A stretch of 21,983 nt of DNA from a virus: the UHGV virus genome UHGV-1604392; one strand, written 5' to 3'. The notes under the pieces are model-generated. The model did no database searches, was not told where the DNA came from, and saw nothing but the letters and a program-made list of their open reading frames with translations. The translations under genes and the position numbers were made by a program. Positions 3,227 through 18,276 of this stretch are shown here, one piece after another (position 1 is the stretch's first letter; every line of letters begins with the position of its first letter).

Positions 3227-3445
3227 TCAAAGTTCCGTATTAGCTTGTGCTTCGGTCATTTTTCCTAAGTATGAAGGAGGAAGGACTACGCAATTTGTAT
3301 CCAGTCCCTCACCTATGGCAGCCTGTAAAATTCTGGCTAAGGTGAGTCTCTTGTTGCGATACCTGGTGATGACATGCCTGATACCGCCGGTCGGCGTAAC
3401 AAAGGCGATCAGCCAGTAGTGATATTTCCGTCGGAATGGCCACAT
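3227..3445 (-). CDS. 72-aa basic small protein, translationally coupled to the 420-aa coiled-coil gene
   Basis: ORF begins right after the operator/palindrome region and ends 1 nt before the next start; function unknown. Confidence 0.55.
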   Translation of the reverse strand: MWPFRRKYHYWLIAFVTPTGGIRHVITRYRNKRLTLARILQAAIGEGLDTNCVVLPPSYLGKMTEAQANTEL

Positions 3446-3526: not shown

Positions 3527-4228
3527 TTATTCTGATTCTCGCTCAAAAAACGAGCTAATAAGGGGAAGCCAATCCTCTGACACTTCGCGAGGTCGCGGTT
3601 TGCCGTGGAAAAAGATTATTCGGCAGTCCTTTGGTAATGCCCCATTCCCCCTGGAGTAACGCGCGCTCGCATATTTTGAACCAGGTTCCACAACATCGGC
3701 CTTGTAACTTACAAACCATCCTGGATACAGATCCTGAAATGCTGGTGTATCATCGCCCATAACCTTCCGTAAGAACCCCTGATCACCCCAGCACTCAGTA
3801 GTGACACAACGAGAAATCCAACCTTCCGGATCTTGCCAGAATGAACTCCAGATATGCGCTTTTACACTATTTGGTATCCACAGGGCACCGCTACCACGAT
3901 ATTGTGGATGGTAAAAATCCCTAAGCATGGTGAAGCTGGTTGGTGGATTCTCAAGGATTGGGCGTATATCACCGGCAATAACTGTGTCCAAATCCAGATA
4001 GAACAGATCATCTGTTATATCCGGTCGGAACAACTCGATTTTCGCCCACCAGCCACGGCACTTTTGCCACTGGTTGATCAATGGGACAACTTTGACGCCA
4101 GGTACATGTAAACGCTTCAGGTCTGTCAGGCAAATAATTTCATAGCCTTTTGGCAGTTGATTAACCAGCCACTGCACATCGGAAGCGTTATAGTCACCAC
4201 CAGAGCGAAAAACTAAAGCAATCTTCAT
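3527..4228 (-). CDS. Putative glycosyltransferase-like protein (DxD-type motif YLDLDTV), 233 aa
   Basis: N-terminal [13 protein letters not shown]... followed by LDLD resembles nucleotide-sugar transferase folds; its start overlaps the stop of the phosphatase remnant (ATGA overlap). Confidence 0.55.
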
Positions 4229-4509
4229 GCTGCACCATCACCTTTCACTTTCATCAATGTCAGGTTTCCGCAAAATACGGCACCAGTGTCGATATACTGC
4301 TGATTCCAGAATGTCTTCGGGCTTTTCACCGGAGTGTGACCAAAGATAAAACGATCTGCGCCCGAAATTTCGCCACCAATATCATCCATCGAATCACTGA
4401 TACGCTCGCGCGCCCAGACAACGTTGAAAAGCGGCACCTCCTTACCGAATTGATATTCATTATCCGGATAGTCGGCATGGGCTATAACCTTTTTTCTGCC
4501 CTTCAGCCT
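4225..4509 (-). pseudogene. ppp: C-terminal half of a lambda-type Ser/Thr protein phosphatase (metallophosphatase); frame open without a usable start, N-terminal catalytic motifs absent
   Basis: Translation ...[23 protein letters not shown]...[15 protein letters not shown]...[21 protein letters not shown] closely matches the lambda phosphatase C-terminus as I recall it; the frame opens only after a TGA at about 4510 and overlaps the end of the upstream ORF. Confidence 0.6.
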
Positions 4510-4810
4510 TCATTTTCCCGGCGGTTGCTTTTGAACGTTTCCCTCCGTTAGGCGTTGCATGCAACAGCTCATAGATGTCAGGGTGCTTGCGTTCGATGTA
4601 ATCAAAAATGAAAACCTGCTCGAAGTGCTCGCAATTTCCGTCGCGCAGGTCTGGGTTCTTTGCCAGTGCTGCAAGTGCCTTCGCATGTGGAGAAACTTCT
4701 TTTACCGGCGCAAGCGATAAGAATGGATCCTTTTTGGTTTTTGGCCTGGACCGCCCCTTATTTCGACGCTCACTAAAAGCCTGAAACTCTTCCTCAGTAA
4801 AGCGCAACAT
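4460..4810 (-). CDS. 116-aa ORF; appears to be a degenerate N-terminal phosphatase domain (KKD...RDGNCEH...LL..NGG echoes lambda phosphatase but lacks GDxHG/GDxxDRG/GNHE)
   Basis: ATG at 4810 two nt after the stop of the upstream gene; ends in a different frame from the downstream phosphatase remnant, across an A6 run (about 4491-4496). Confidence 0.5.
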
Positions 4811-5204: not shown

Positions 5205-5750
5205 ATGGCTACATCAATCACTACAACCCAAAGCACCCGGCAATATCCTCTGTCGCGGTATGACGACCGCAACATAGCCGATCCAATACTCAGGGCAGAG
5301 CTGCGCAAAGAGGTGATGCTTATGTGTGAATCGAACGACAAGAATCTGACGATTTATTACGTTCTTCCCGATGAGCAATATCGCCCGGATTTGCTGGCTT
5401 ACCGTATGTGGGGCATACCTGTTGTGCCTCCCCGTTCCCTAATACGGGGACACTCTGCGGTCGATTTTTTGACGGGGGACGACTCATACCCCGTGGCATC
5501 TGGCTTCTTAGGCCGCTACCATCATCAGATCATCGTTTGCATTTACTTTAATGGTCAGTTTCTAAACCGCCGCAAAGTCGCTAACCATGACGAAAACCCT
5601 GAAAAAAACGCCCACCCGAAGATGGGCAAACTGGAAGCTCGTAACGCACTTCGGCGTTGCCACTTAGGCGCATGGTCAACCTGGCAACTCGGTGGTTTGT
5701 CTGGGAGGACTAGGCCCAGCCATGCTTACCGCCGCGCCTGTCGCGGCTAA
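5205..5750 (+). CDS. Doubtful ORF; only the first ~70 codons look protein-like, the rest is rare-codon rich and overlaps a hairpin cluster
   Basis: No convincing Shine-Dalgarno; downstream part rich in CTA/ATA/CGG/AGG codons with R/H/W/G-rich translation. Confidence 0.2.
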   Translation: MATSITTTQSTRQYPLSRYDDRNIADPILRAELRKEVMLMCESNDKNLTIYYVLPDEQYRPDLLAYRMWGIPVVPPRSLIRGHSAVDFLTGDDSYPVASGFLGRYHHQIIVCIYFNGQFLNRRKVANHDENPEKNAHPKMGKLEARNALRRCHLGAWSTWQLGGLSGRTRPSHAYRRACRG

Positions 5751-5801: not shown

Positions 5802-5818
5802 AAATTTATTAGAGCAAT
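5802..5818 (-). promoter_or_regulatory. C1-operator site, exact 17/17 match (reverse complement ATTGCTCTAATAAATTT), overlapping the methyltransferase stop codon
   Basis: Exact consensus match read from sequence. Confidence 0.65.
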
Positions 5819-8178
5819 ATACCCAAAACGTCATGAGCTACACCTCGAGTGTCTCCCTTACAAGACACAGAACGTCTGGCAAAAAGAGGTTCCACTCTGA
5901 AGCCACTGTCATGATAAAGCTCTCTGATGTTTGGCGCGCCACTGTTAGTAATGAGAACCTTTGCACCTCGACGATGAGCATCCGTCAACAGAGACACCAG
6001 GCGTTTTTGCTCTTCAAACTTAAAGTCATGACCGGAATAGTTCGTGAATCCCTCTGTATTTGGAAGCGGTTCATACGGCGGATCGCAAAAGATGACATCT
6101 CCTTCTCCGGCAGCTTCAATCACCGCTGCAAAATCACCGCATACAAACTCAGACCGCCCTTCCGCACCGAGGAAGGCTTCCATCTCCTGTAATGGGAAAT
6201 ACGGAGTTTTATACTTCCCATAACCGACATTGAACTCACCGGCCTGGTTGTAGCGCGTCAATCCGTTAAAACAATGTCGGTTCAGGAACAAAAACGCCGC
6301 TGCGCGATGTAAATCATCATAGACTTGTTTGTTAAACGCATTCCGTACTGCCAGGTATCCTTCCTGTGTGTTGTAGTCCTGGAAGAAACGATGTGCCAGA
6401 GTGATAAGTGAATGCGCCTCGCGTTGCAGAGTCTTGTAAAAGTTAATCAGGTCAGCATTCACATCATTTAGCAGATTTTCCTGGTATCCGGCATTCATGA
6501 AGACAGCTCCGCCACCAACGAAAGGTTCAATCAAGCGCTTCCCTTCTGGCAAATAGCGAAAGATTTGTTCCAGAACACCAAATTTTCCACCAGCCCATTT
6601 GAATATAGACCGTTCGAATTCTGCCGCTGGTTTAACTTTTCGCTCTTTTGTTTCACTTCCTTCTTTCTGCCGACATACGGCCTTAGTAATCTGATCGCCA
6701 ATCCAGCGCATTACTGGTATTGCCATACTATTGCCGATCGCTTTGTAACGCGGTCCGTCAGCTGCAAGCATCGCGGCCTCTTCTTCGCTTAAATCTGGAT
6801 AGTGATTGCGAAGATATGCCAGTTCATCTGAATTAACTTTTTTACGCTTTTCCGTAGGGATCAACGTATGCCCATCAGGAAAACCTTGCAGCCTTTCACA
6901 TTCGACAGGGGTAAGACGGCGGACAGCTACTTCTGCGTTTCTTACTTCATAGCAAACAGCTGTTGGATTTTTAGCCATTAGAGATGGTGAAGTATTCTTA
7001 GTTGCAGCATGTTGTGTACCGCTCATACGCTCAGGAAAAGCCAATGTAACAAGATGCTCATGGCTTTCTTGCTCACGTGCCCGCAATGTACCATGCCCTT
7101 CTGACCAAAAACCTGCTCCTGTGCTGCTAAAAACGGCAAGATCAGTGGCATCTTTAAAATCTCTTGCCTTTACTGTCGATGCGGTTTCATCGTCAATATA
7201 TTCCCCAAATGCTGCCATCCTGAAAGCGTTTACGGCTTTCGTCGATTTCATACCGGGTGGCATGTCAGCGTGTAGGCATGGATTTAGGCTTTCGCCACTG
7301 ATTGCAGCGCCATTTGCAATAATGGCGGAAGCGATTTCCTTCTTTTTTCGGCTCGGCGCAATATTCCGGCGCACGCCTTCGAACTCAAAAAGTACCGTTG
7401 CGGGATCGAGGTCTGTTCGAGCACTTGCGACAACAAACACGCATCGGCGTCGTTGTGCCACTCCGAAGTATTGGGCATCAAGGATTCTCCAGGCCACTTT
7501 TCGCTGCGGTCCATAAATACAACCACACTGCGGCCACTTTGGAGCATGGCAACCGGTTTTGATATCCCACCGCCAGAACGCGTTACTTTTTCCTGATTCA
7601 GGTCGATCACCTGGTTCGAATGGCGCATCTTCTCCAGCCAATCCGGCAAGGAAACATCCGAAGGCGTTATCTGCCGATGACAAGACTCCTGGGACATTTT
7701 CCCAGACGATAACGGCTGGTTTGAGAAATGACTCAGCCCGTTTGTCGTCAATTGCATTTGCAAGCTCCACATACTTTAAAGTTAGCGCGCCACGCTCATC
7801 ATCAAGCCCACCACGTAATCCAGCGATACTGAATGCCTGACAGTTATGGACCACCGCACCATTGAGGATATAGGAATGATCACCTTCGACTTCTATGTTG
7901 TATACAGTATCTAGGCCTACCGATTTAAACTCTTTGACTGTTCGTAAAAGCATTCCATGAGCCAATCTTGATTTACGTGACAATTTCTGCGGGCAGATTG
8001 TTACCTGATAATAATTCCGTTGATTTACCACGCGATCCTCAATCACTTTTTTGGGCTCAACTTCAATAAAGCTGACCGAAGAAACATAACCACAAGTCTG
8101 TGACAACTCCGCAACGCCCCAAGCAATACTCGCGGCTTCAATTCCACTGCAAACAGATCCATAGCACAGCTCTTTCAC
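5809..8178 (-). CDS. dmt: Bifunctional DNA methyltransferase: N-terminal C5-cytosine MTase domain fused to C-terminal Dam-like N6-adenine MTase domain (P1 Dmt-like)
   Basis: C5 motifs [42 protein letters not shown] and catalytic NCQ; C-terminal [15 protein letters not shown] and DPPY motifs of Dam-type enzymes. GTG start overlaps the stop of the upstream rdgC-like gene. Confidence 0.85.
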
Positions 8179-9080
8179 TGCTTAGCCTCTCCACCAAGGG
8201 CATTTACCAGAGCATCAACCAGGCACGAAATTTCACTGGTCAACAGGAAGAAATCTGCGTCCAGTCGCTGCGCAACATCTTCACTATCAATATCAGAGTT
8301 CTGCTCAAGCAATTCATCCGCAAATTTGACGCTGGTAAGGCTGAAGTTATGGTCCAGTGTAAATTTAATGCGGTTCTGCCAGTCGAGTGCCAACTTAGTG
8401 ACGAGCTTGCCAGCTTCCAGGTGTGTGGAAATTTCATCGCTTCCCAAATCCTGCTTTTTCACTCGGGCAATACCGCCATCCTCAAGCACTGCCTTAAGTT
8501 CTGCCGCATCCCCCATTTGAAATCCCTGTGGAGCACTACCATCACGTACCCAGTCGGTCAGCGTTAATTCAATGGGATTTTCAACACTCAGGGGAACAAC
8601 AGGAAGAGAACCCAGAGACTTACGCATAAGCGCGAGCATATCCTCTGCCTGCCGCGCGCTGGCATTGATATAGATACGTTTAGTTGAACCATCGTAGATC
8701 GCCTGGATAACAGAAAACTTTGAAAAAGCCCGTGGCAGAAGAGAATGCAGAACTTCGTCTTTCAGGGAATCCTTCTCTGTTTTCTTCAGTTTACGCGCTT
8801 GTTCTTGCTCAAGTTTTTCAATTTTTTCTTGAATAGCTCGCTGGATAACCGGCGGGGGAAGAATTTTTGTTTCGCGCTTTGCTTCAACAAGGATAAAACC
8901 ATTTCCATGCATAGCGATAACTTCGGAATTATCACCAAATGGCGATACAAAACCGAACTTGGCCATATCCTGACTACCGCATGGCGTGAAAAGGATCATT
9001 TTCTTTTTATCTTCTAAGTCGGTCAGATCCGCCTCACGAGAAAGTTTATAAATAGTAATGTTTTTCCAGTGCTTAAACAT
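8175..9080 (-). CDS. rdgC: RdgC-family recombination-associated DNA-binding protein homologue (302 aa from ATG at 9080)
   Basis: Strong similarity to E. coli RdgC as I recall it ([13 protein letters not shown]..., [13 protein letters not shown]..., [27 protein letters not shown]..., [10 protein letters not shown]...). The ORF-track start at 9194 is an upstream extension. Confidence 0.85.
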
Positions 9081-9428: not shown

Positions 9429-9445
9429 ATATTTATTAGAGCAAT
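9429..9445 (-). promoter_or_regulatory. C1-operator-like site (reverse complement ATTGCTCTAATAAATaTT) with TTGCTC-17nt-TATGTC promoter-like elements
   Basis: Same 17-mer as at 1368-1384; sits between the divergent minus- and plus-strand operons. Confidence 0.6.
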
Positions 9446-9525
9446 TATGCAATAGTTAACGCCATGTAGACCACAAGTAACCTAAGTTAAAATAACGAAA
9501 ACCAGAGCAAATAATTGGTGATGAC

Positions 9526-9810
9526 GTGGCAAGTATTGCAACAAAAGACAGCATTTGTTCGGGGCACGGAGGATTCCCATCCAGGCCTCCTGTAGAGAGT
9601 GAACCACTACTTAAAGTCAACGGAGTCGAAGTGTTAGTTGATGGTAAGCAATATGCACAGCATACCGATGGAAACAGTACGCACGGTGGGCAAGCTATAT
9701 CAACCAGGGCATGGTTTACCGTCAATGGTAAAGGGGTCGTATGCGTTGGTGACCCTGTTTCATGCGGCTCTACCGTAGCGTCAGGAGACGGCCTGGTTCA
9801 GGTAAGTTAG
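9526..9810 (+). CDS. PAAR-like small beta-rich protein (94 aa)
   Basis: Repeats of VNG...V.VGD strands (LKVNGVEVLVDG, FTVNGKGVVCVGD) plus CSGHGG and THGG motifs resembling PAAR spike-tip proteins; GTG start. Confidence 0.45.
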   Translation: MASIATKDSICSGHGGFPSRPPVESEPLLKVNGVEVLVDGKQYAQHTDGNSTHGGQAISTRAWFTVNGKGVVCVGDPVSCGSTVASGDGLVQVS

Positions 9811-9818
9811 GAGATATC

Positions 9819-10607
9819 ATGCTGGAAAAAGACTACCAGTTATCCGCATATAAAAAATTGGCCGCTGCCGGTGGGATGAAAACACCTGGTGCCATAACAT
9901 CGGCACGAAACAGTGCTAACACGGCAAAACAGCTTGCAGAAGAATTGACCGGATTAATTTTGGATACAATTGTCTATCCCGACACTATTACCAGCTATGT
10001 TTCAACGATCAGAACAACCACAGCCGGCTTAACGAACATTGGAGAACTGGCAACTAAGCACGCGGACCTGTTGGCTGGTTATGCAGATCTGTCAATGCTG
10101 CTTCAACTCGATATTGGTTGGGATGTTTACTGCCGTGCTAATGAGCGAGAAGTTTCAGAACTGCCAATCTCTATTGCCATTGGTGATGTGACTATTACTA
10201 AATCGCTTGAGGACGCTGTAAACGCGCTTAATACATCAAGTTTAGTCGCTGCTATGGGGGAGATTAACCAGACCCTTAACACTGGCTCTGAAAGCTCGTC
10301 AGGTACTGGTTCAGGCGGCGGCACTGCCATTCCCCCACCAGCACTAACAGAAAAGCAAATTGAAGCTCTGAAAGTAGCAACTGAACAGTTTGGGGGAGTT
10401 TTCAACCAAACAACAGCGCCCACAGTTGCATTGCAACAGCAGTATGAACGGGCGAAGGAAAGCGCCAGCATAGCCATAACTGCTTATGGCCATGCTATTG
10501 GTACCGCGCTTGCGGAAGCATCAGCAAATAAGACCAGCACAGCCAGCGCAGTCGCCGCTTTGGTTCCTGATTCTGTTCTTGATGAATTAAACAAAGCGGC
10601 ACAGTAA
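9819..10607 (+). CDS. 262-aa protein of unknown function with an internal Gly/Ser-rich linker (SESSSGTGSGGGTAIPPP)
   Basis: ATG at 9819 with AGGAG 6 nt upstream, 8 nt after the previous stop; no catalytic motif recognised. Confidence 0.6.
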   Translation: MLEKDYQLSAYKKLAAAGGMKTPGAITSARNSANTAKQLAEELTGLILDTIVYPDTITSYVSTIRTTTAGLTNIGELATKHADLLAGYADLSMLLQLDIGWDVYCRANEREVSELPISIAIGDVTITKSLEDAVNALNTSSLVAAMGEINQTLNTGSESSSGTGSGGGTAIPPPALTEKQIEALKVATEQFGGVFNQTTAPTVALQQQYERAKESASIAITAYGHAIGTALAEASANKTSTASAVAALVPDSVLDELNKAAQ

Positions 10608-10646
10608 CAAAGGACTTCATTGATAATTTTTCTTCAGGAGGAAGAC

Positions 10647-11069
10647 ATGTCATTCTTTTCTACGTTAAAAACAGCTTTGTCTTTGAAGGAGAAACTTGCT
10701 GCTACTGGTGTTCTTGTTCTGATTTGCGCACTTGTTGGTGCTGGGTTTGCGTGGGAACGTCATCAGCTAAAGCAAGCCATGGAGAAAATTGGCAGTCTTG
10801 ATCAGGCTGTTAAGGAACGTGATAAGTCAATAATGGATCTTAACCAGACCATTGAGACGATGAACAAAGCAGAGCAACATTTTCACAGCCAGGAAGTGAA
10901 AAATGAATCAGAACAAGCCAAGTATGCTGACAGGCAAATGGAACGAAAAGCTGAAGTTCAGAAACAACTTGTTGCGGCGGGTAATGTTCGCCAGCGTATT
11001 CCTGCTGACACTCAGCGGTTGCTCCGGGAGTCGATCAGCGAATTTAACGCCGACGCCGACAAAGGTTAA
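10647..11069 (+). CDS. i-spanin-like protein: N-terminal transmembrane helix followed by periplasmic coiled coil (Rz-like)
   Basis: ATG with AGGAGG upstream; hydrophobic segment TGVLVLICALVGAGFAW then charged coiled-coil region; C-terminal ...RQRIPADTQRLLRESI resembles Rz C-termini. Confidence 0.55.
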   Translation: MSFFSTLKTALSLKEKLAATGVLVLICALVGAGFAWERHQLKQAMEKIGSLDQAVKERDKSIMDLNQTIETMNKAEQHFHSQEVKNESEQAKYADRQMERKAEVQKQLVAAGNVRQRIPADTQRLLRESISEFNADADKG

Positions 11070-11235
11070 CCACCCTGCCCCAAAAAGTGCATTTATGTGC
11101 AGGATGCCAGAGTTTAGCAGTGAATATTTTGATGATCTGCCAGCGTATATCCTCGATACAGAAACGATGCTGATGGGGATTAACAGGAAGAATCACAACG
11201 TTAATGATTACAACCGAGCTATTAGCGGTAACTAA
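10984..11235 (+). CDS. o-spanin-like outer-membrane lipoprotein (Rz1-like), +1 frame, overlapping the 3' end of the i-spanin-like gene
   Basis: Signal peptide with lipobox LTLSGC (MFASVFLLTLSGCSGS...), Pro-rich mature region; overlapped out-of-frame arrangement. Confidence 0.5.
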   Translation: MFASVFLLTLSGCSGSRSANLTPTPTKVNHPAPKSAFMCRMPEFSSEYFDDLPAYILDTETMLMGINRKNHNVNDYNRAISGN

Positions 11236-11246
11236 AAGGGATTTTT

Positions 11247-11639
11247 ATGTCTGATAAAGTAACAGTAAAGCAAACTATCAACAAAGCGACTTCAATCTAC
11301 AAAATTGAGCAAATCACTGTTGGCAAGCCAGGATCTGAACAATACCGTCGTGCTTTCGAGCTTGCCGATCAGCTTGGTTTAAAATACCCGGATTGCATCG
11401 AGCATGTATTTCCGACCTATGCTGATGAGCAATGTACTCATGTTCTTACCGAAGAGGATTTTTTCAGCACTGAAGAACGAGAAGGCGTTGATCGCTGCAT
11501 TGGTGTGATTTGCTCTTCAGTGAGTTATGAGTTATTCCCTAATGTCCATGAAGATGGTGGTATTGGATACCAATTCCTGTACGAAGGCGATGAGCTTAAA
11601 TGTTATGAACATGGTCTTCTTATCGAAAGCGTAGAATAA
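11247..11639 (+). CDS. 130-aa acidic protein with five scattered Cys, unknown function
   Basis: ATG with AAGGGA upstream; last gene before a terminator and the plasmid origin. Confidence 0.6.
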   Translation: MSDKVTVKQTINKATSIYKIEQITVGKPGSEQYRRAFELADQLGLKYPDCIEHVFPTYADEQCTHVLTEEDFFSTEEREGVDRCIGVICSSVSYELFPNVHEDGGIGYQFLYEGDELKCYEHGLLIESVE

Positions 11640-11651
11640 TATGACTTCCTT

Positions 11652-11680
11652 CCAACCGGCTTTGTTGGCCGGTTTATTCA
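11652..11680 (+). terminator. Rho-independent terminator (stem aaccggc/gccggtt followed by TTTATT)
   Basis: Inverted repeat plus T-rich tail directly after the 130-aa gene stop. Confidence 0.5.
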
Positions 11681-11683
11681 ACT

Positions 11684-11760
11684 TATCCACAGCATAGATC
11701 CAATAAACAGATCCTAAAGAGAACCTAGGAAGATCCAAAGAAGATCCCGGATCGCTGTAA
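11684..11760. promoter_or_regulatory. Plasmid origin core: consensus DnaA box TTATCCACA (about 11684-11692) followed by a cluster of five GATC (Dam) sites in AGATCC-type repeats
   Basis: Organisation matches the P1 oriR layout (DnaA box, GATC heptamers, then iterons). Confidence 0.55.
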
Positions 11761-11794
11761 GCCGCGTCATTACTGGCCTGAAATGGGATCAACA

Positions 11795-11898
11795 TTGACT
11801 ATACGCGATTTTATGTTGACTGTGCACGATTTATTGTTGACTGCACGCGATTTATTGTTGACTATACGCGACAGAAACATTGACTGTAAGCGATTTTA
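11795..11898 (+). repeat. incC-type iterons: five direct repeats of about 19 bp (TTGACTryrCGCGATTT-like) at 21-22-bp spacing, upstream of repA
   Basis: Repeat starts at about 11795, 11816, 11837, 11858 and 11880, read from sequence. Confidence 0.8.
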
Positions 11899-11974
11899 GA
11901 GTCTGAATATTCACAGCTGTTGATAACAGCCATCCAAATTGACGTCAGGCCGCGCCACACATGGAGAAACTGCG

Positions 11975-12859
11975 ATGCCGGAAGAAAGTAAAGGCTTCCT
12001 TAGCGTTGAAGAAGTTGCAGGAAATACAGGAGAAATCCACAGCCTGAAGCCCAATAACAACAGCACTATACAACCCATCGCTTTGTTGCGCTTAGGTGTG
12101 TTTGTGCCAACCTTAAAATCTACCAATGTGGCGCTACGTCGCGGATCGTCAGTTACTACAAACACAACGAACGCAACCGAAGAACTATCAAGCCTCAAAA
12201 TTGTTGAGCAGGAAGGCTATGAGGGAATTGAAATTCATGGTCCACGCCTGGATATGGATACTGATTTTAAGGTGTGGGTGGGCATAACCTCCGCGTTGTT
12301 TGACTACGCACCTGATGATGACGGCATAATCACCCTGCCATTCTCCGAGTTTGCCGATCGATGCGGCTATCCACGTAAGCGCCTTTCAAAGGCGTTCCGT
12401 AAAAGTATTGATGACTCTCTGACACGCATTCAGCAGACAGTTGTCAAATTCCGCTTCCCGGCGGCAAAAGGTCATCTCAATAACATTAACGTCAACTTGT
12501 TGGCATATAGCAGCCTGAATACCGAGCTTGATGTTATCGAGATCCAGCCGCAGAAACAGCTATCTGAACTTTACTATGTTGACTATAAGCGAATCCTGAA
12601 GCTGAAGATGCTGGATAAACTAGGGCGCAAAGAGACGGCCAAGGTACTGTATACATTCTTTGAGGCTCTACCCGCCAACCCGGCACCTGTCAGCATTGAG
12701 CGCCTTAGAGCGAGGCTTAATCTCAAATCATCCGTTAGCGTGCAAAATAGCGTTATCAGAAAAGCCATGAAAGATTTGGAAGCTATTGAATATCTTAAAT
12801 TTTCAGAGATAAAAAACGGCAGGAAAATCGGCTTCCAGATCCATAAGCGCAATCCATAA
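11975..12859 (+). CDS. repA: Replication initiator RepA (P1 RepA family), about 294 aa from ATG at 11975
   Basis: Flanked by iterons on both sides; LRLGVFVP and GPRLDMDTDFKVW segments match P1 RepA as I recall it; GGAGAAA 8 nt upstream of the ATG. The ORF-track start at 11939 is a TTG inside the iteron region. Confidence 0.85.
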   Translation: MPEESKGFLSVEEVAGNTGEIHSLKPNNNSTIQPIALLRLGVFVPTLKSTNVALRRGSSVTTNTTNATEELSSLKIVEQEGYEGIEIHGPRLDMDTDFKVWVGITSALFDYAPDDDGIITLPFSEFADRCGYPRKRLSKAFRKSIDDSLTRIQQTVVKFRFPAAKGHLNNINVNLLAYSSLNTELDVIEIQPQKQLSELYYVDYKRILKLKMLDKLGRKETAKVLYTFFEALPANPAPVSIERLRARLNLKSSVSVQNSVIRKAMKDLEAIEYLKFSEIKNGRKIGFQIHKRNP

Positions 12860-13151: not shown

Positions 13152-13961
13152 ATGCAAGAAGAGAAACAACACTACCTCTACGTTCTGGTGCCAGAGAACG
13201 GAGATACTTTTAAAATCGGCATTTCATGTGGTCCATTGGCACGGTTTAAAGGGCTACAAGTGAGTCCCGATTTTGCGCTTTCACGGGTCTATCGTGGTAC
13301 GCGTTTGGCAATGGTTAATCTTGAGCGGGCTTTACACGCAACCTTTTTCCCCTGGAATGCGCCGTGGGAGAAAAGCGCCGGTGGCGGGCATACTGAATGG
13401 TTTACACGAGAGTGTCTTGATAAGGTTTTGGCTTATATCGAATATCTAAATGATATGTGGGGAGGGATTCTCGAGCGCATTAAGTCGAATGATTTACTTC
13501 AGCGTCCAGTAGATGCTGCTTGCTCTTTCGAAAAAGAGCTGGATGTTACTTCTATCGTGACTTTCAAAGATGACGCAGGAATGAGGGACGTGGCTTATGT
13601 CTCCATATCTGGCTATGAACCGGACGCGATCCGCGCTCAATGTGAATTGCTGAAAGCAATGTTTATGCTTCGGACTAAATATCCCTGGGATACAGGGCGG
13701 GTGTGCTTCCCTATGGAAGAGTTAACCGCCACCATTGATTCCCAGCTTTACCACGATAATCCAGAGAAGTTTTTTAGCCTTTTAGCCGATAATGGGCTTA
13801 ACTGTGTGTCCGGGCTGGGGCGAAGTAGAATCCAACATGCCTCGCTCTTCGGTCCCTTCTTTTACGATCGACACGGGTACTTTGAGGCTGAACTTCCGGC
13901 GCTTACGCGTGCTATAGATACTATCGATTTCGAACGATTATTCGCTGCTCTTAGCAAATAA
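13152..13961 (+). CDS. T5orf172/GIY-YIG-superfamily domain protein (N-terminal ~100 aa) with C-terminal domain of unknown function, 269 aa
   Basis: YLYVL...(10 aa)...KIGIS spacing typical of GIY-x10-YIG, Arg 8 residues later (GPLAR), then ...NLERALH...TEWF; followed by its own terminator. Confidence 0.65.
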   Translation: MQEEKQHYLYVLVPENGDTFKIGISCGPLARFKGLQVSPDFALSRVYRGTRLAMVNLERALHATFFPWNAPWEKSAGGGHTEWFTRECLDKVLAYIEYLNDMWGGILERIKSNDLLQRPVDAACSFEKELDVTSIVTFKDDAGMRDVAYVSISGYEPDAIRAQCELLKAMFMLRTKYPWDTGRVCFPMEELTATIDSQLYHDNPEKFFSLLADNGLNCVSGLGRSRIQHASLFGPFFYDRHGYFEAELPALTRAIDTIDFERLFAALSK

Positions 13962-16348: not shown

Positions 16349-16433
16349 TCGCCATTCAAATTTCACCATTAACCGACTGTTTTTAAAGTAAATTACTCTA
16401 AAATTTCAAGGTGAAATCGCCACGATTTCACCT
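16349..16433. other. parS: Partition site parS: heptamer box A (ATTTCAC/ATTTCAA), hexamer box B (TCGCCA) and a central AT-rich IHF-binding region
   Basis: TCGCCATTCAAATTTCAC...TTTTTAAAGTAAATTACTCTAAAATTTCAAGGTGAAATCGCCACGATTTCAC matches P1 parS architecture. Confidence 0.85.
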
Positions 16434-16569: not shown

Positions 16570-18276
16570 TTGAGTAACTTACGCGAATACCAGAATCGTA
16601 TTGCAGATATCGCAAAACGCTCTAAAGCAGTGCTTGGCTGGGCAAGCACTGCGCAGTTCGGTACTGATAACCAATTCATTAAAGGTGATGCCGCGCGTGC
16701 CGCATCTATCCTTGAAGCTGCACGTAAAGACCCAATTTTTGCGGGTATCTCTGATAATGCCACCGCTCAAATCGCCACAGCGTGGGCAAGTGCACTGGCT
16801 GACTACGCCGCAGCACATAAATCTATGCCGCGTCCGGAAATTCTGGCCTCCTGCCACCAGACGCTGGAAAACTGCCTGATTGAGTCCACCCGCAATAGCA
16901 TGGATGCCACTAATAAAGCGATGCTGGAATCCGTCGCAGCAGAGATGATGAGCGTTTCTGACGGTGTTATGCGTCTGCCTTTATTCCTCGCGATGATCCT
17001 GCCTGTTCAGTTGGGGGCAGCTACCGCTGATGCGTGCACCTTCATTCCGGTTACGCGTGACCAGTCCGACATCTATGAAGTCTTTAACGTGGCAGGTTCC
17101 TCTTTTGGTTCTTATGCTGCTGGTGATGTTCTGGACATGCAATCCGTCGGTGTGTACAGCCAGTTACGCCGCCGCTATGTGCTGGTGGCAAGCTCCGATG
17201 GCACCAGCAAAACCGCAACCTTCAAGATGGAAGACTTCGAAGGCCAGAATGTACCAATCCGAAAAGGTCGCACTAACATCTACGTTAACCGTATTAAGTC
17301 TGTTGTTGATAACGGTTCCGGCAGCCTACTTCACTCGTTTACTAATGCTGCTGGTGAGCAAATCACTGTTACCTGCTCTCTGAACTACAACATTGGTCAG
17401 ATTGCCCTGTCGTTCTCCAAAGCGCCGGATAAAGGCACTGAGATCGCAATTGAGACGGAAATCAATATTGAAGCCGCTCCTGAGCTGATCCCGCTGATCA
17501 ACCACGAAATGAAGAAATACACCCTGTTCCCAAGCCAGTTCGTTATCGCGGCTGAGCACACGGTACAGGCGGCGTATGAAGCACAGCGTGAATTTGGTCT
17601 GGACCTGGGTTCCCTACAGTTCCGCACCCTGAAGGAATACCTGTCTCATGAACAGGATATGCTGCGTCTTCGCATCATGATCTGGCGTACTCTTGCGACC
17701 GACACCTTTGACATCGCTCTGCCGGTTAACCAGTCCTTTGATGTATGGGCAACCATCATTCGTGGCAAATTCCAGACTGTATATCGCGACATTATTGAGC
17801 GCGTTAAATCTTCTGGTGCGATGGGGATGTTTGCTGGTGCTGATGCAGCATCTTTCTTCAAACAGTTGCCGAAGGATTTCTTCCTGCCAGCCGAAGACTA
17901 TATCCAGACTCCGTATGTTCACTACATCGGTACCCTGTTCGGTAACGTGAAAGTGTACGAAGTACCTGCTGGTATTTGTAAGAACTTAACGACAGAGAAC
18001 ATTCAGTTCAGTTCGATGGATGTGCTGTGCTACGTTCGTGATGAAAATCCGGGTAAAGCAGGCTTCGTGACTGGTGATGCTGTCCCGGCCATCCCGTTCC
18101 AGCATCCGACCACTCCGGCGCTGGTCAACCGTACCACGCTGTGGGGTTCGGCTATCAACGATATGCACCCACGCAACGGCGCTGATTACTTCACTCGTGT
18201 AACGCTGACAATGGCCAAAAAAGGCGGGCTTAACTTCATAAGCGGCGACACGATTGATGCCGGTGACTCTGAGTAA
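16570..18276 (+). CDS. Large virion structural protein, probably major head protein precursor (about 568 aa from TTG at 16570)
   Basis: First gene after the late promoter, TTG with AAGGAAGAG upstream; Ala-rich N-terminal region consistent with a cleaved propeptide. Assignment rests on size and position, not a diagnostic motif. Confidence 0.5.
   Translation: MSNLREYQNRIADIAKRSKAVLGWASTAQFGTDNQFIKGDAARAASILEAARKDPIFAGISDNATAQIATAWASALADYAAAHKSMPRPEILASCHQTLENCLIESTRNSMDATNKAMLESVAAEMMSVSDGVMRLPLFLAMILPVQLGAATADACTFIPVTRDQSDIYEVFNVAGSSFGSYAAGDVLDMQSVGVYSQLRRRYVLVASSDGTSKTATFKMEDFEGQNVPIRKGRTNIYVNRIKSVVDNGSGSLLHSFTNAAGEQITVTCSLNYNIGQIALSFSKAPDKGTEIAIETEINIEAAPELIPLINHEMKKYTLFPSQFVIAAEHTVQAAYEAQREFGLDLGSLQFRTLKEYLSHEQDMLRLRIMIWRTLATDTFDIALPVNQSFDVWATIIRGKFQTVYRDIIERVKSSGAMGMFAGADAASFFKQLPKDFFLPAEDYIQTPYVHYIGTLFGNVKVYEVPAGICKNLTTENIQFSSMDVLCYVRDENPGKAGFVTGDAVPAIPFQHPTTPALVNRTTLWGSAINDMHPRNGADYFTRVTLTMAKKGGLNFISGDTIDAGDSE

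Follow-up and report, generated by a model that had tools for sequence, protein, structure and literature searches.

Why should the gene for a PAAR-type spike tip protein share an operon with a pair of membrane proteins that resembles a phage spanin? The question is raised by positions 9,429 to 11,680 of the virus genome UHGV-1604392, a stretch of 21,983 nucleotides that was analysed as a whole and is called the window below. An earlier note on this DNA, made from the letters alone, considered the combination unusual and proposed that five genes lying here might form a stand-alone module for envelope disruption or exclusion. This proposal is not supported: the interval is the conserved upfC-upfB-ppfA-mlp-upfA backbone cluster of a P1-like (Punavirus) phage-plasmid, in which ppfA and mlp have already been assigned as the P1 spanins and UpfC and UpfB have been placed in the tail tip. 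The cluster therefore consists of already known P1 genes and is not a new envelope-attack module. Very probably it comprises two functionally separate neighbouring pairs, one concerned with entry into the cell (UpfC/UpfB) and the other with exit from it (PpfA/Mlp).

The layout itself is as the earlier note described it; the open reading frame (ORF) list and the raw sequence contain five tightly packed plus-strand genes, and all the elements attributed to them were found:

9526-9810, plus strand: upfC, 94 amino acids, GTG start; PAAR-type spike tip protein.
9819-10607, plus strand: upfB, 262 amino acids, ATG start with GGAG 5 nt upstream; protein with a Gly/Ser linker, predicted to be all-helical.
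10647-11069, plus strand: ppfA, 140 amino acids, AGGAGG ribosome-binding site; putative i-spanin (Rz equivalent).
10903-11235, plus strand: mlp, 110 amino acids, in the +1 frame relative to ppfA; putative o-spanin precursor (Rz1 equivalent).
11247-11639, plus strand: upfA, 130 amino acids, isoelectric point 4.5, five Cys; acidic beta-rich protein.

Between positions 9000 and 12200 the window shows 95-97.5% DNA identity to P1 isolates, RCS47, SJ46, P7 and vB_EcoM-Ro157c2YLVW. The gene order upfC, upfB, ppfA, mlp, upfA is the same in the annotated P1 (NC_005856) and RCS47 records, where the cluster has the uhr-hrdC-dmt operon on one side and the plasmid origin on the other; in NC_005856 the genes are P1_gp066 to P1_gp062, with order and orientation as in the window. 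The upstream C1 operator Op68/Pdmt and the DnaA box/GATC part of oriR downstream are also shared with P1. The encoded proteins are 90-99% identical to those of P1 (UpfC 92/94, UpfB 235/262, PpfA 139/140, Mlp 108/110 and UpfA 126/130 residues), UpfB being the most diverged of the five with 27 substitutions in 262 residues. Among the outcomes that, by the earlier note, would speak against its proposal was that the operon is P1 backbone with the membrane pair being the standard spanins of the phage, and it is this outcome that was found.

The first gene of the entry pair is readily placed. In phmmer searches of the PDB, UpfC matches the structure of P1 UpfC (9vyi_A; E 2.5e-60, 92 of 94 residues identical), T4 gp5.4 (chains 5iv5/4ku0; E 6.5e-8 to 9e-8) and the PAAR protein 4jiv_D (E 2.9e-4), and it also matches phrog_281 (E 2.2e-30). 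These significant matches put it among the PAAR/phage spike-tip proteins, and the PAAR-like character that had been suggested for the 94-amino acid protein is confirmed. Against the type VI secretion system (T6SS) PAAR equivalog, NCBIfam NF033420, it scores 36.2 bits, far from the cut-off of 124; UpfC is a phage-type tip and not a T6SS component. In P1, cryo-electron microscopy published in 2026 shows monomeric UpfC capping the trimeric gp5 spike (PMC12810830), and a second study of the P1 baseplate, a preprint, likewise puts UpfC at the needle tip (10.1101/2025.07.21.665459). T4 gp5.4 and the T6SS PAAR proteins (PF05488) are comparable in that a small (~95 amino acids) PAAR-fold cone caps a trimeric beta-helical spike. 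P1 differs from T4 in that its gp5 is without the lysozyme domain of T4 gp5 (PMC9024508, PMC12810830), and in the addition of the reported UpfB "tripod", for which no counterpart has been solved.

UpfB itself belongs to phrog_1559 (E 4e-133). The P1 record gives upfB as a 281-amino acid ORF from 9762, and the phrog_1559 profile begins at residue 20 of that ORF; since both the PHROG profile and the ribosome-binding site (GGAG) favour it, the 262-amino acid start (ATG at 9819) is the better call, in agreement with the length that had been read from the sequence. The public P1 and RCS47 records both carry the resulting 19-codon N-terminal extension, which overlaps upfC (window 9762-9818; 3264-3320 in the comparison locus L001). 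The AlphaFold2 model of UpfB is all alpha-helical with a predicted local distance difference test score (pLDDT) of 82. Its sole long low-confidence stretch, which is disordered, is the Gly/Ser linker TGSESSSGTGSGGGT (residues 159-170), so that this feature of the earlier description also stands. Neither sequence nor fold gave a relative of UpfB in the PDB; the fold search returned generic helical bundles at E >0.07, which were dismissed. Sequence searches of the PDB were equally without a match for PpfA and UpfA, and UpfB and UpfA found nothing in Pfam, NCBIfam or PADLOC.

In the P1 virion, three trimeric "tripod" densities on the tip were assigned to UpfB by fitting an AlphaFold3 model at medium resolution (PMC12810830). 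Without exception, the PAAR gene is followed by upfB in the relatives, down to a UpfB identity of 43%. The divergence of UpfB would, judged from the sequence, suit a part of the tail tip that contacts the host.

The second pair had been described as a type-II membrane protein with an overlapping, out-of-frame lipoprotein bearing the lipobox LTLSGC, and had been called spanin-like; phrog_89, phrog_30284 and SpaninDB all support this. PpfA matches the "Rz-like spanin" family phrog_89 (E 1.2e-25) and also phrog_739 and phrog_214, while Mlp matches phrog_30284 (E 1.5e-76) and phrog_456; the NCBIfam search added weak matches of PpfA to TIGR03495 LysB and of Mlp to P2_Rz1/LysC. Strong hydrophobicity is confined in PpfA to one segment near the N terminus (residues ~17-36, Kyte-Doolittle 19-residue mean 2.35), with Lys residues before it, and the 104 residues after this transmembrane domain (TMD) show the Rz-like PHROG matches and weak matches to coiled-coil families. 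Hydropathy and family matches together give PpfA the one N-terminal TMD, type II topology and helical periplasmic domain of an i-spanin. Mlp has the features of an o-spanin: the Cys of its lipobox is Cys40, the residue at +2 is Ser and not Asp, and the mature protein of 71 amino acids contains 6 Pro. The two genes overlap by 167 nt and mlp continues for 166 nt beyond the ppfA stop, as is characteristic of the overlapped class; the same arrangement is seen in the more distant relatives L010 and L012. Mlp has one Cys besides the lipidated residue and the only Cys of PpfA lies within the TMD, so the pair contains the periplasmic Cys expected of a two-component spanin.

SpaninDB (Kongari et al. 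2018, PMC6139136 supplement) lists P1 gp064/gp063 as an overlapped ("ovl") i-/o-spanin pair. For the i-spanin it gives an N-terminal segment of 36 residues that includes the TMD and a periplasmic domain of 104 residues in which there is no Cys; for the o-spanin it gives a 39-residue signal flagged "too long", residue 39 as the LipoP cleavage site and a single Cys in the periplasmic part. In Bednarek et al. 2022, too, ppfA and mlp are given as the spanin genes of P1, on the basis of predicted features (PMC9025707, citing Summer et al. 2007). The i- and o-spanin labels of ppfA and mlp are swapped in that paper. PpfA and Mlp are the catalogued two-component spanin of P1, of the overlapped class, and we infer their mechanism from family membership and topology.

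The pair can be compared with lambda Rz/Rz1 and P2 LysB/LysC, which likewise consist of an inner-membrane protein of type II topology, with a helical periplasmic domain, and a lipoprotein of the outer membrane whose gene lies in the +1 frame; in being overlapped the pair matches P2 lysB/lysC. Several differences are apparent. The i-spanin PpfA is without a periplasmic Cys, the sole one being in Mlp, and at 39 residues the lipoprotein signal of Mlp is unusually long. Further, ppfA/mlp lie outside any holin-endolysin cassette: searches of Pfam, PHROGs and NCBIfam turned up no holin or endolysin family for any of the five proteins, as the earlier note had anticipated, and a canonical lysis cassette, with holin and endolysin genes adjoining the spanins in one operon, is not what is seen here. 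In P1, too, the ppfA/mlp operon is unlinked to lyz, lydA/B, lydC and lydD/E (PMC9025707).

From these assignments a course of events at the two ends of infection can be proposed. On entry, the PAAR-type UpfC would cap the trimeric gp5 tail spike and helical UpfB, as three trimers forming the tripod, would sit on the UpfC tip; together they would sharpen and decorate that end of the contractile tail which pierces the membrane. On exit, the holins LydA, C and D and the endolysin Lyz, all encoded elsewhere, would first breach the inner membrane and the cell wall. PpfA, as a helical i-spanin anchored in the inner membrane, would form a two-component overlapped spanin with Mlp, and in the final step of lysis the spanin complex is thought to fuse the inner and outer membranes.

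Several observations weigh against this assignment of roles. The match of UpfC to Pfam PAAR PF05488, at 26.5 bits, lies just below the 27-bit cut-off. The UpfB tripod comes from one study and from medium-resolution density (PMC12810830); UpfB is absent from the main text of a virion study that used LC-MS/MS (PMC9024508) and is not mentioned in the preprint that shows UpfC at the needle tip (10.1101/2025.07.21.665459). In a genome-wide CRISPR interference (CRISPRi) study all five genes were non-essential (PMC10695390), so that no phenotype backs the proposed roles; upfC, upfB and upfA are also non-essential by deletion (PMC9024508, PMC10695390), and plaquing is unimpaired when upfC is deleted (PMC9024508). 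Lastly, the genes for gp5 and gp6, the carriers of UpfC, are missing from their usual place in the window.

This last point leads to the possibility that the window comes from a defective P1-like plasmid without its baseplate, spike and helicase genes, a relic in which there is nothing for UpfC and UpfB to assemble onto and no productive lytic cycle for the spanins to complete. Relative to RCS47 one deletion of ~2.0 kb extends from the 3' part of a phosphatase gene through part of pmgM, and another of ~9.7 kb removes most of gene 26, then 25, 7, 24, 6, 5, a glycosyltransferase gene, ban/dnaB, tRNAs, plp and upl. About 11.7 kb of P1 neighbour DNA is missing in total, with spike gene 5 and hub gene 6 among it, and the lost genes 5, 6, 7, 24, 25 and 26 are all tail or baseplate genes. 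The junctions, at window positions 4484-4488 and 5416-5417, are deletions by comparison with every P1-like record and recur in none; they show microhomology of 5 bp (ATAAC) and 2 bp (TA), respectively. Either junction is spanned by 0 of the 612-615 matching PLSDB plasmids, and the 9.7-kb junction by 0/577 matching complete E. coli genomes. If the deletions are real the element has lost the UpfC-bearing spike and hub, and is probably defective. Alternatively, the contig may have been misassembled and the junctions could be artefacts of this; moreover, 22 kb of the element is visible and the missing genes could be elsewhere, and the five ORFs are intact and 90-99% identical to P1, so that any decay would be recent. 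That the element is such a relic is thus a possibility to be taken seriously, though we think it somewhat doubtful, and it bears on the use of the genes here and not on their identity.

That the five genes together make up a single stand-alone module for envelope disruption or superinfection exclusion, with the PAAR protein and its partner acting jointly with the membrane-bridging pair, as the earlier note suggested, we regard as scarcely credible. It is true that all four products of upfC, upfB, ppfA and mlp act at the cell envelope, that no holin or endolysin accompanies them in the operon, and that the four genes stay adjacent and co-oriented even at 43% UpfB identity. The order of PAAR gene, upfB, TMD/coiled-coil gene and overlapping lipoprotein gene is kept in L012 (UpfB 57%) and L010 (UpfB 43%), with LTVLVAC and MMLSGC as the respective lipoboxes of their lipoproteins, and upfC-upfB-ppfA-mlp is an old neighbourhood within the P1-like phage lineage. 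The adjacency is, however, confined to P1-like phage-plasmids, which are syntenic throughout, and with synteny shared so generally it does not argue in favour of a functional link. The tail tip of the virion is where UpfC and UpfB have been placed, and spanins act from within the infected cell; the two pairs therefore belong to opposite ends of the infection cycle. The 19-residue hydropathy maxima of UpfC and UpfB are ~0.8 and 1.0, as against 2.35 for PpfA, and nothing suggests that they reach the periplasm from within. PADLOC defence and exclusion models gave no match for the five proteins, and a coiled-coil match of PpfA to PbeC is insignificant (E 0.012). It is a very unlikely, if slightly less strained, idea that the linkage of upfC/upfB to the spanin genes reflects a shared late unit driven by an unannotated Lpa-type promoter, with UpfA, which has a confident fold but no structural neighbour, as a new accessory factor of tail-tip assembly or spanin-mediated fusion. 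Equally to be considered is that ppfA and mlp are not lysis spanins at all and serve instead in lysis regulation, or as a sigma-70-driven prophage surface or exclusion lipoprotein. The P1 record describes mlp as "possibly involved in regulation of lysis" and predicts the sigma-70 promoters P1ppfA and P2ppfA, the P1 spanin assignment is from predicted features (PMC9025707), both genes are dispensable in the CRISPRi study (PMC10695390), and the 39-residue signal is "too long" by SpaninDB. Yet all the testable sequence-level features of a two-component spanin are present, the lysis literature names no other candidate for the P1 spanin (PMC9025707), and in the laboratory one would expect spanins to be dispensable (PMC9025707); this explanation is accordingly highly improbable. 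Two neighbouring pairs with separate functions remain the preferred interpretation. A PAAR gene beside a spanin pair is then the ordinary layout of a P1-like element, in which the lysis genes are spread over several operons; there is no cause to mark such loci in phage-plasmids as novel systems of envelope attack or exclusion, and the value of the result lies mainly in annotation.

The signals that may govern expression of the cluster are the following:

9429-9445, minus strand: C1 repressor operator Op68/Odmt, ATTGCTCTAATAAATAT, from the P1 annotation mapped through alignment.
9475-9493, plus strand: tentative candidate for an Lpa-type late promoter, AAGTAACCT-AAGT-TAAAAT (-22 box, 4-nt spacer, -10).
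11652-11668, plus strand: terminator-like hairpin at the end of the operon, by consensus match, with a T-rich tail to 11678.

The operator-like site that had been noticed at the start of the operon is the P1 C1 operator Op68/Odmt, with which it is identical in sequence; the P1 record assigns it to the divergent promoter Pdmt and not to the upfC operon. Because of this, and because it lies upstream of the candidate promoter elements of upfC, direct repression of upfC by C1 was not assumed. The motif at 9475-9493, 33 nt 5' of the upfC start, has one mismatch to the P1 late promoter LP23, AAGTGACTT-TCAA-TAAAAT, whose annotation in NC_005856 was the single standard for this comparison; the motif has no annotation in the P1 record. 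Four matches to the late-promoter pattern occur in the window against 0.59 expected, one being LP23 itself and another lying 5' of the gene 26 remnant. In L009/L010, which are distant relatives, the PAAR gene has a perfect -22 box on its 5' side (position 4662). At <=1 mismatch there is no match upstream of upfC in P1, RCS47, L003 or L004, and the aligned P1 sequence is degenerate, the window being closer than P1 to the late-promoter consensus at its -22 box-like motif. Capsid gene 23 comes immediately after the four-gene block in L010, without an intervening replicon, whereas in P1 and in the window upfA and the plasmid replicon separate the block from the capsid gene; the join in L010 suggests a neighbourhood of late genes. 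Transcription that is late and dependent on Lpa would agree with the structural and lysis roles, and is suggested tentatively from these motifs.

Two more one-mismatch motifs resembling late promoters, at 16386-16404 and at 16580 (minus strand), flank LP23 (16500-18) in the interval between parS and gene 23, and both are present in P1 and RCS47 as well. As for the far end of the operon, the terminator that had been reported beside the plasmid origin is there as a hairpin with a T-rich tail at 11652-11678, but the scan that detects such sites is not enriched over shuffled sequence (3 sites found, 3.4 expected), so that the site is called terminator-like and no more.

UpfA, the fifth product, is an accessory member of the cluster to which no function is assigned. 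Its sole family match is phrog_1453, itself annotated without a function. An exhaustive search of 1.84 billion representatives gave 45 matches, a narrow family with no annotation; a word-indexed search gave close relatives alone and a scan of genome contigs gave near-identical loci alone. In the alignment the invariant positions form an F-x-Y-x-G-D motif. The 130-amino acid protein is indeed acidic and contains five Cys, as had been noted, but the emphasis placed on the Cys residues was dropped, since they are not conserved in the alignment. More distant P1-like elements have the other four genes but no upfA.

Downstream of the cluster the resemblance to classical P1 is lost. The features at this boundary are:

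11683-11691: DnaA box, followed by a GATC cluster.
11791-11898: five iterons with 21-bp spacing.
11939-12859: Rep3-type initiator.

The match to classical P1 runs out near 11769, within the origin and past the DnaA box and GATC cluster. The replicon that follows is of a Rep3/RepFIB-like type, as in RCS47, SJ46 and MH422554; by sequence comparison it has been swapped, with iterons and a Rep3-type initiator in place of the P1 RepA/oriR. Between rep and parA lies a gene (13152-13961) for a 269-amino acid T5orf172/GIY-YIG-like protein, which RCS47 lists as a GIY-YIG nuclease family protein; in the record of classical P1 no gene is shown between repA and parA.

Two further points concern the annotation of neighbouring and related genes. 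The RCS47 record annotates mlp as a 43-amino acid fragment without the lipoprotein signal (3606-3737 in the comparison locus L002). Upstream of the cluster, the dmt methyltransferase ORF (5809-8178, 789 amino acids from GTG) is ~0.9 kb shorter than the dmt of RCS47 (1095 amino acids), the site of the difference being at 8118-8126; the difference has the look of natural variation in domains between P1-like elements.

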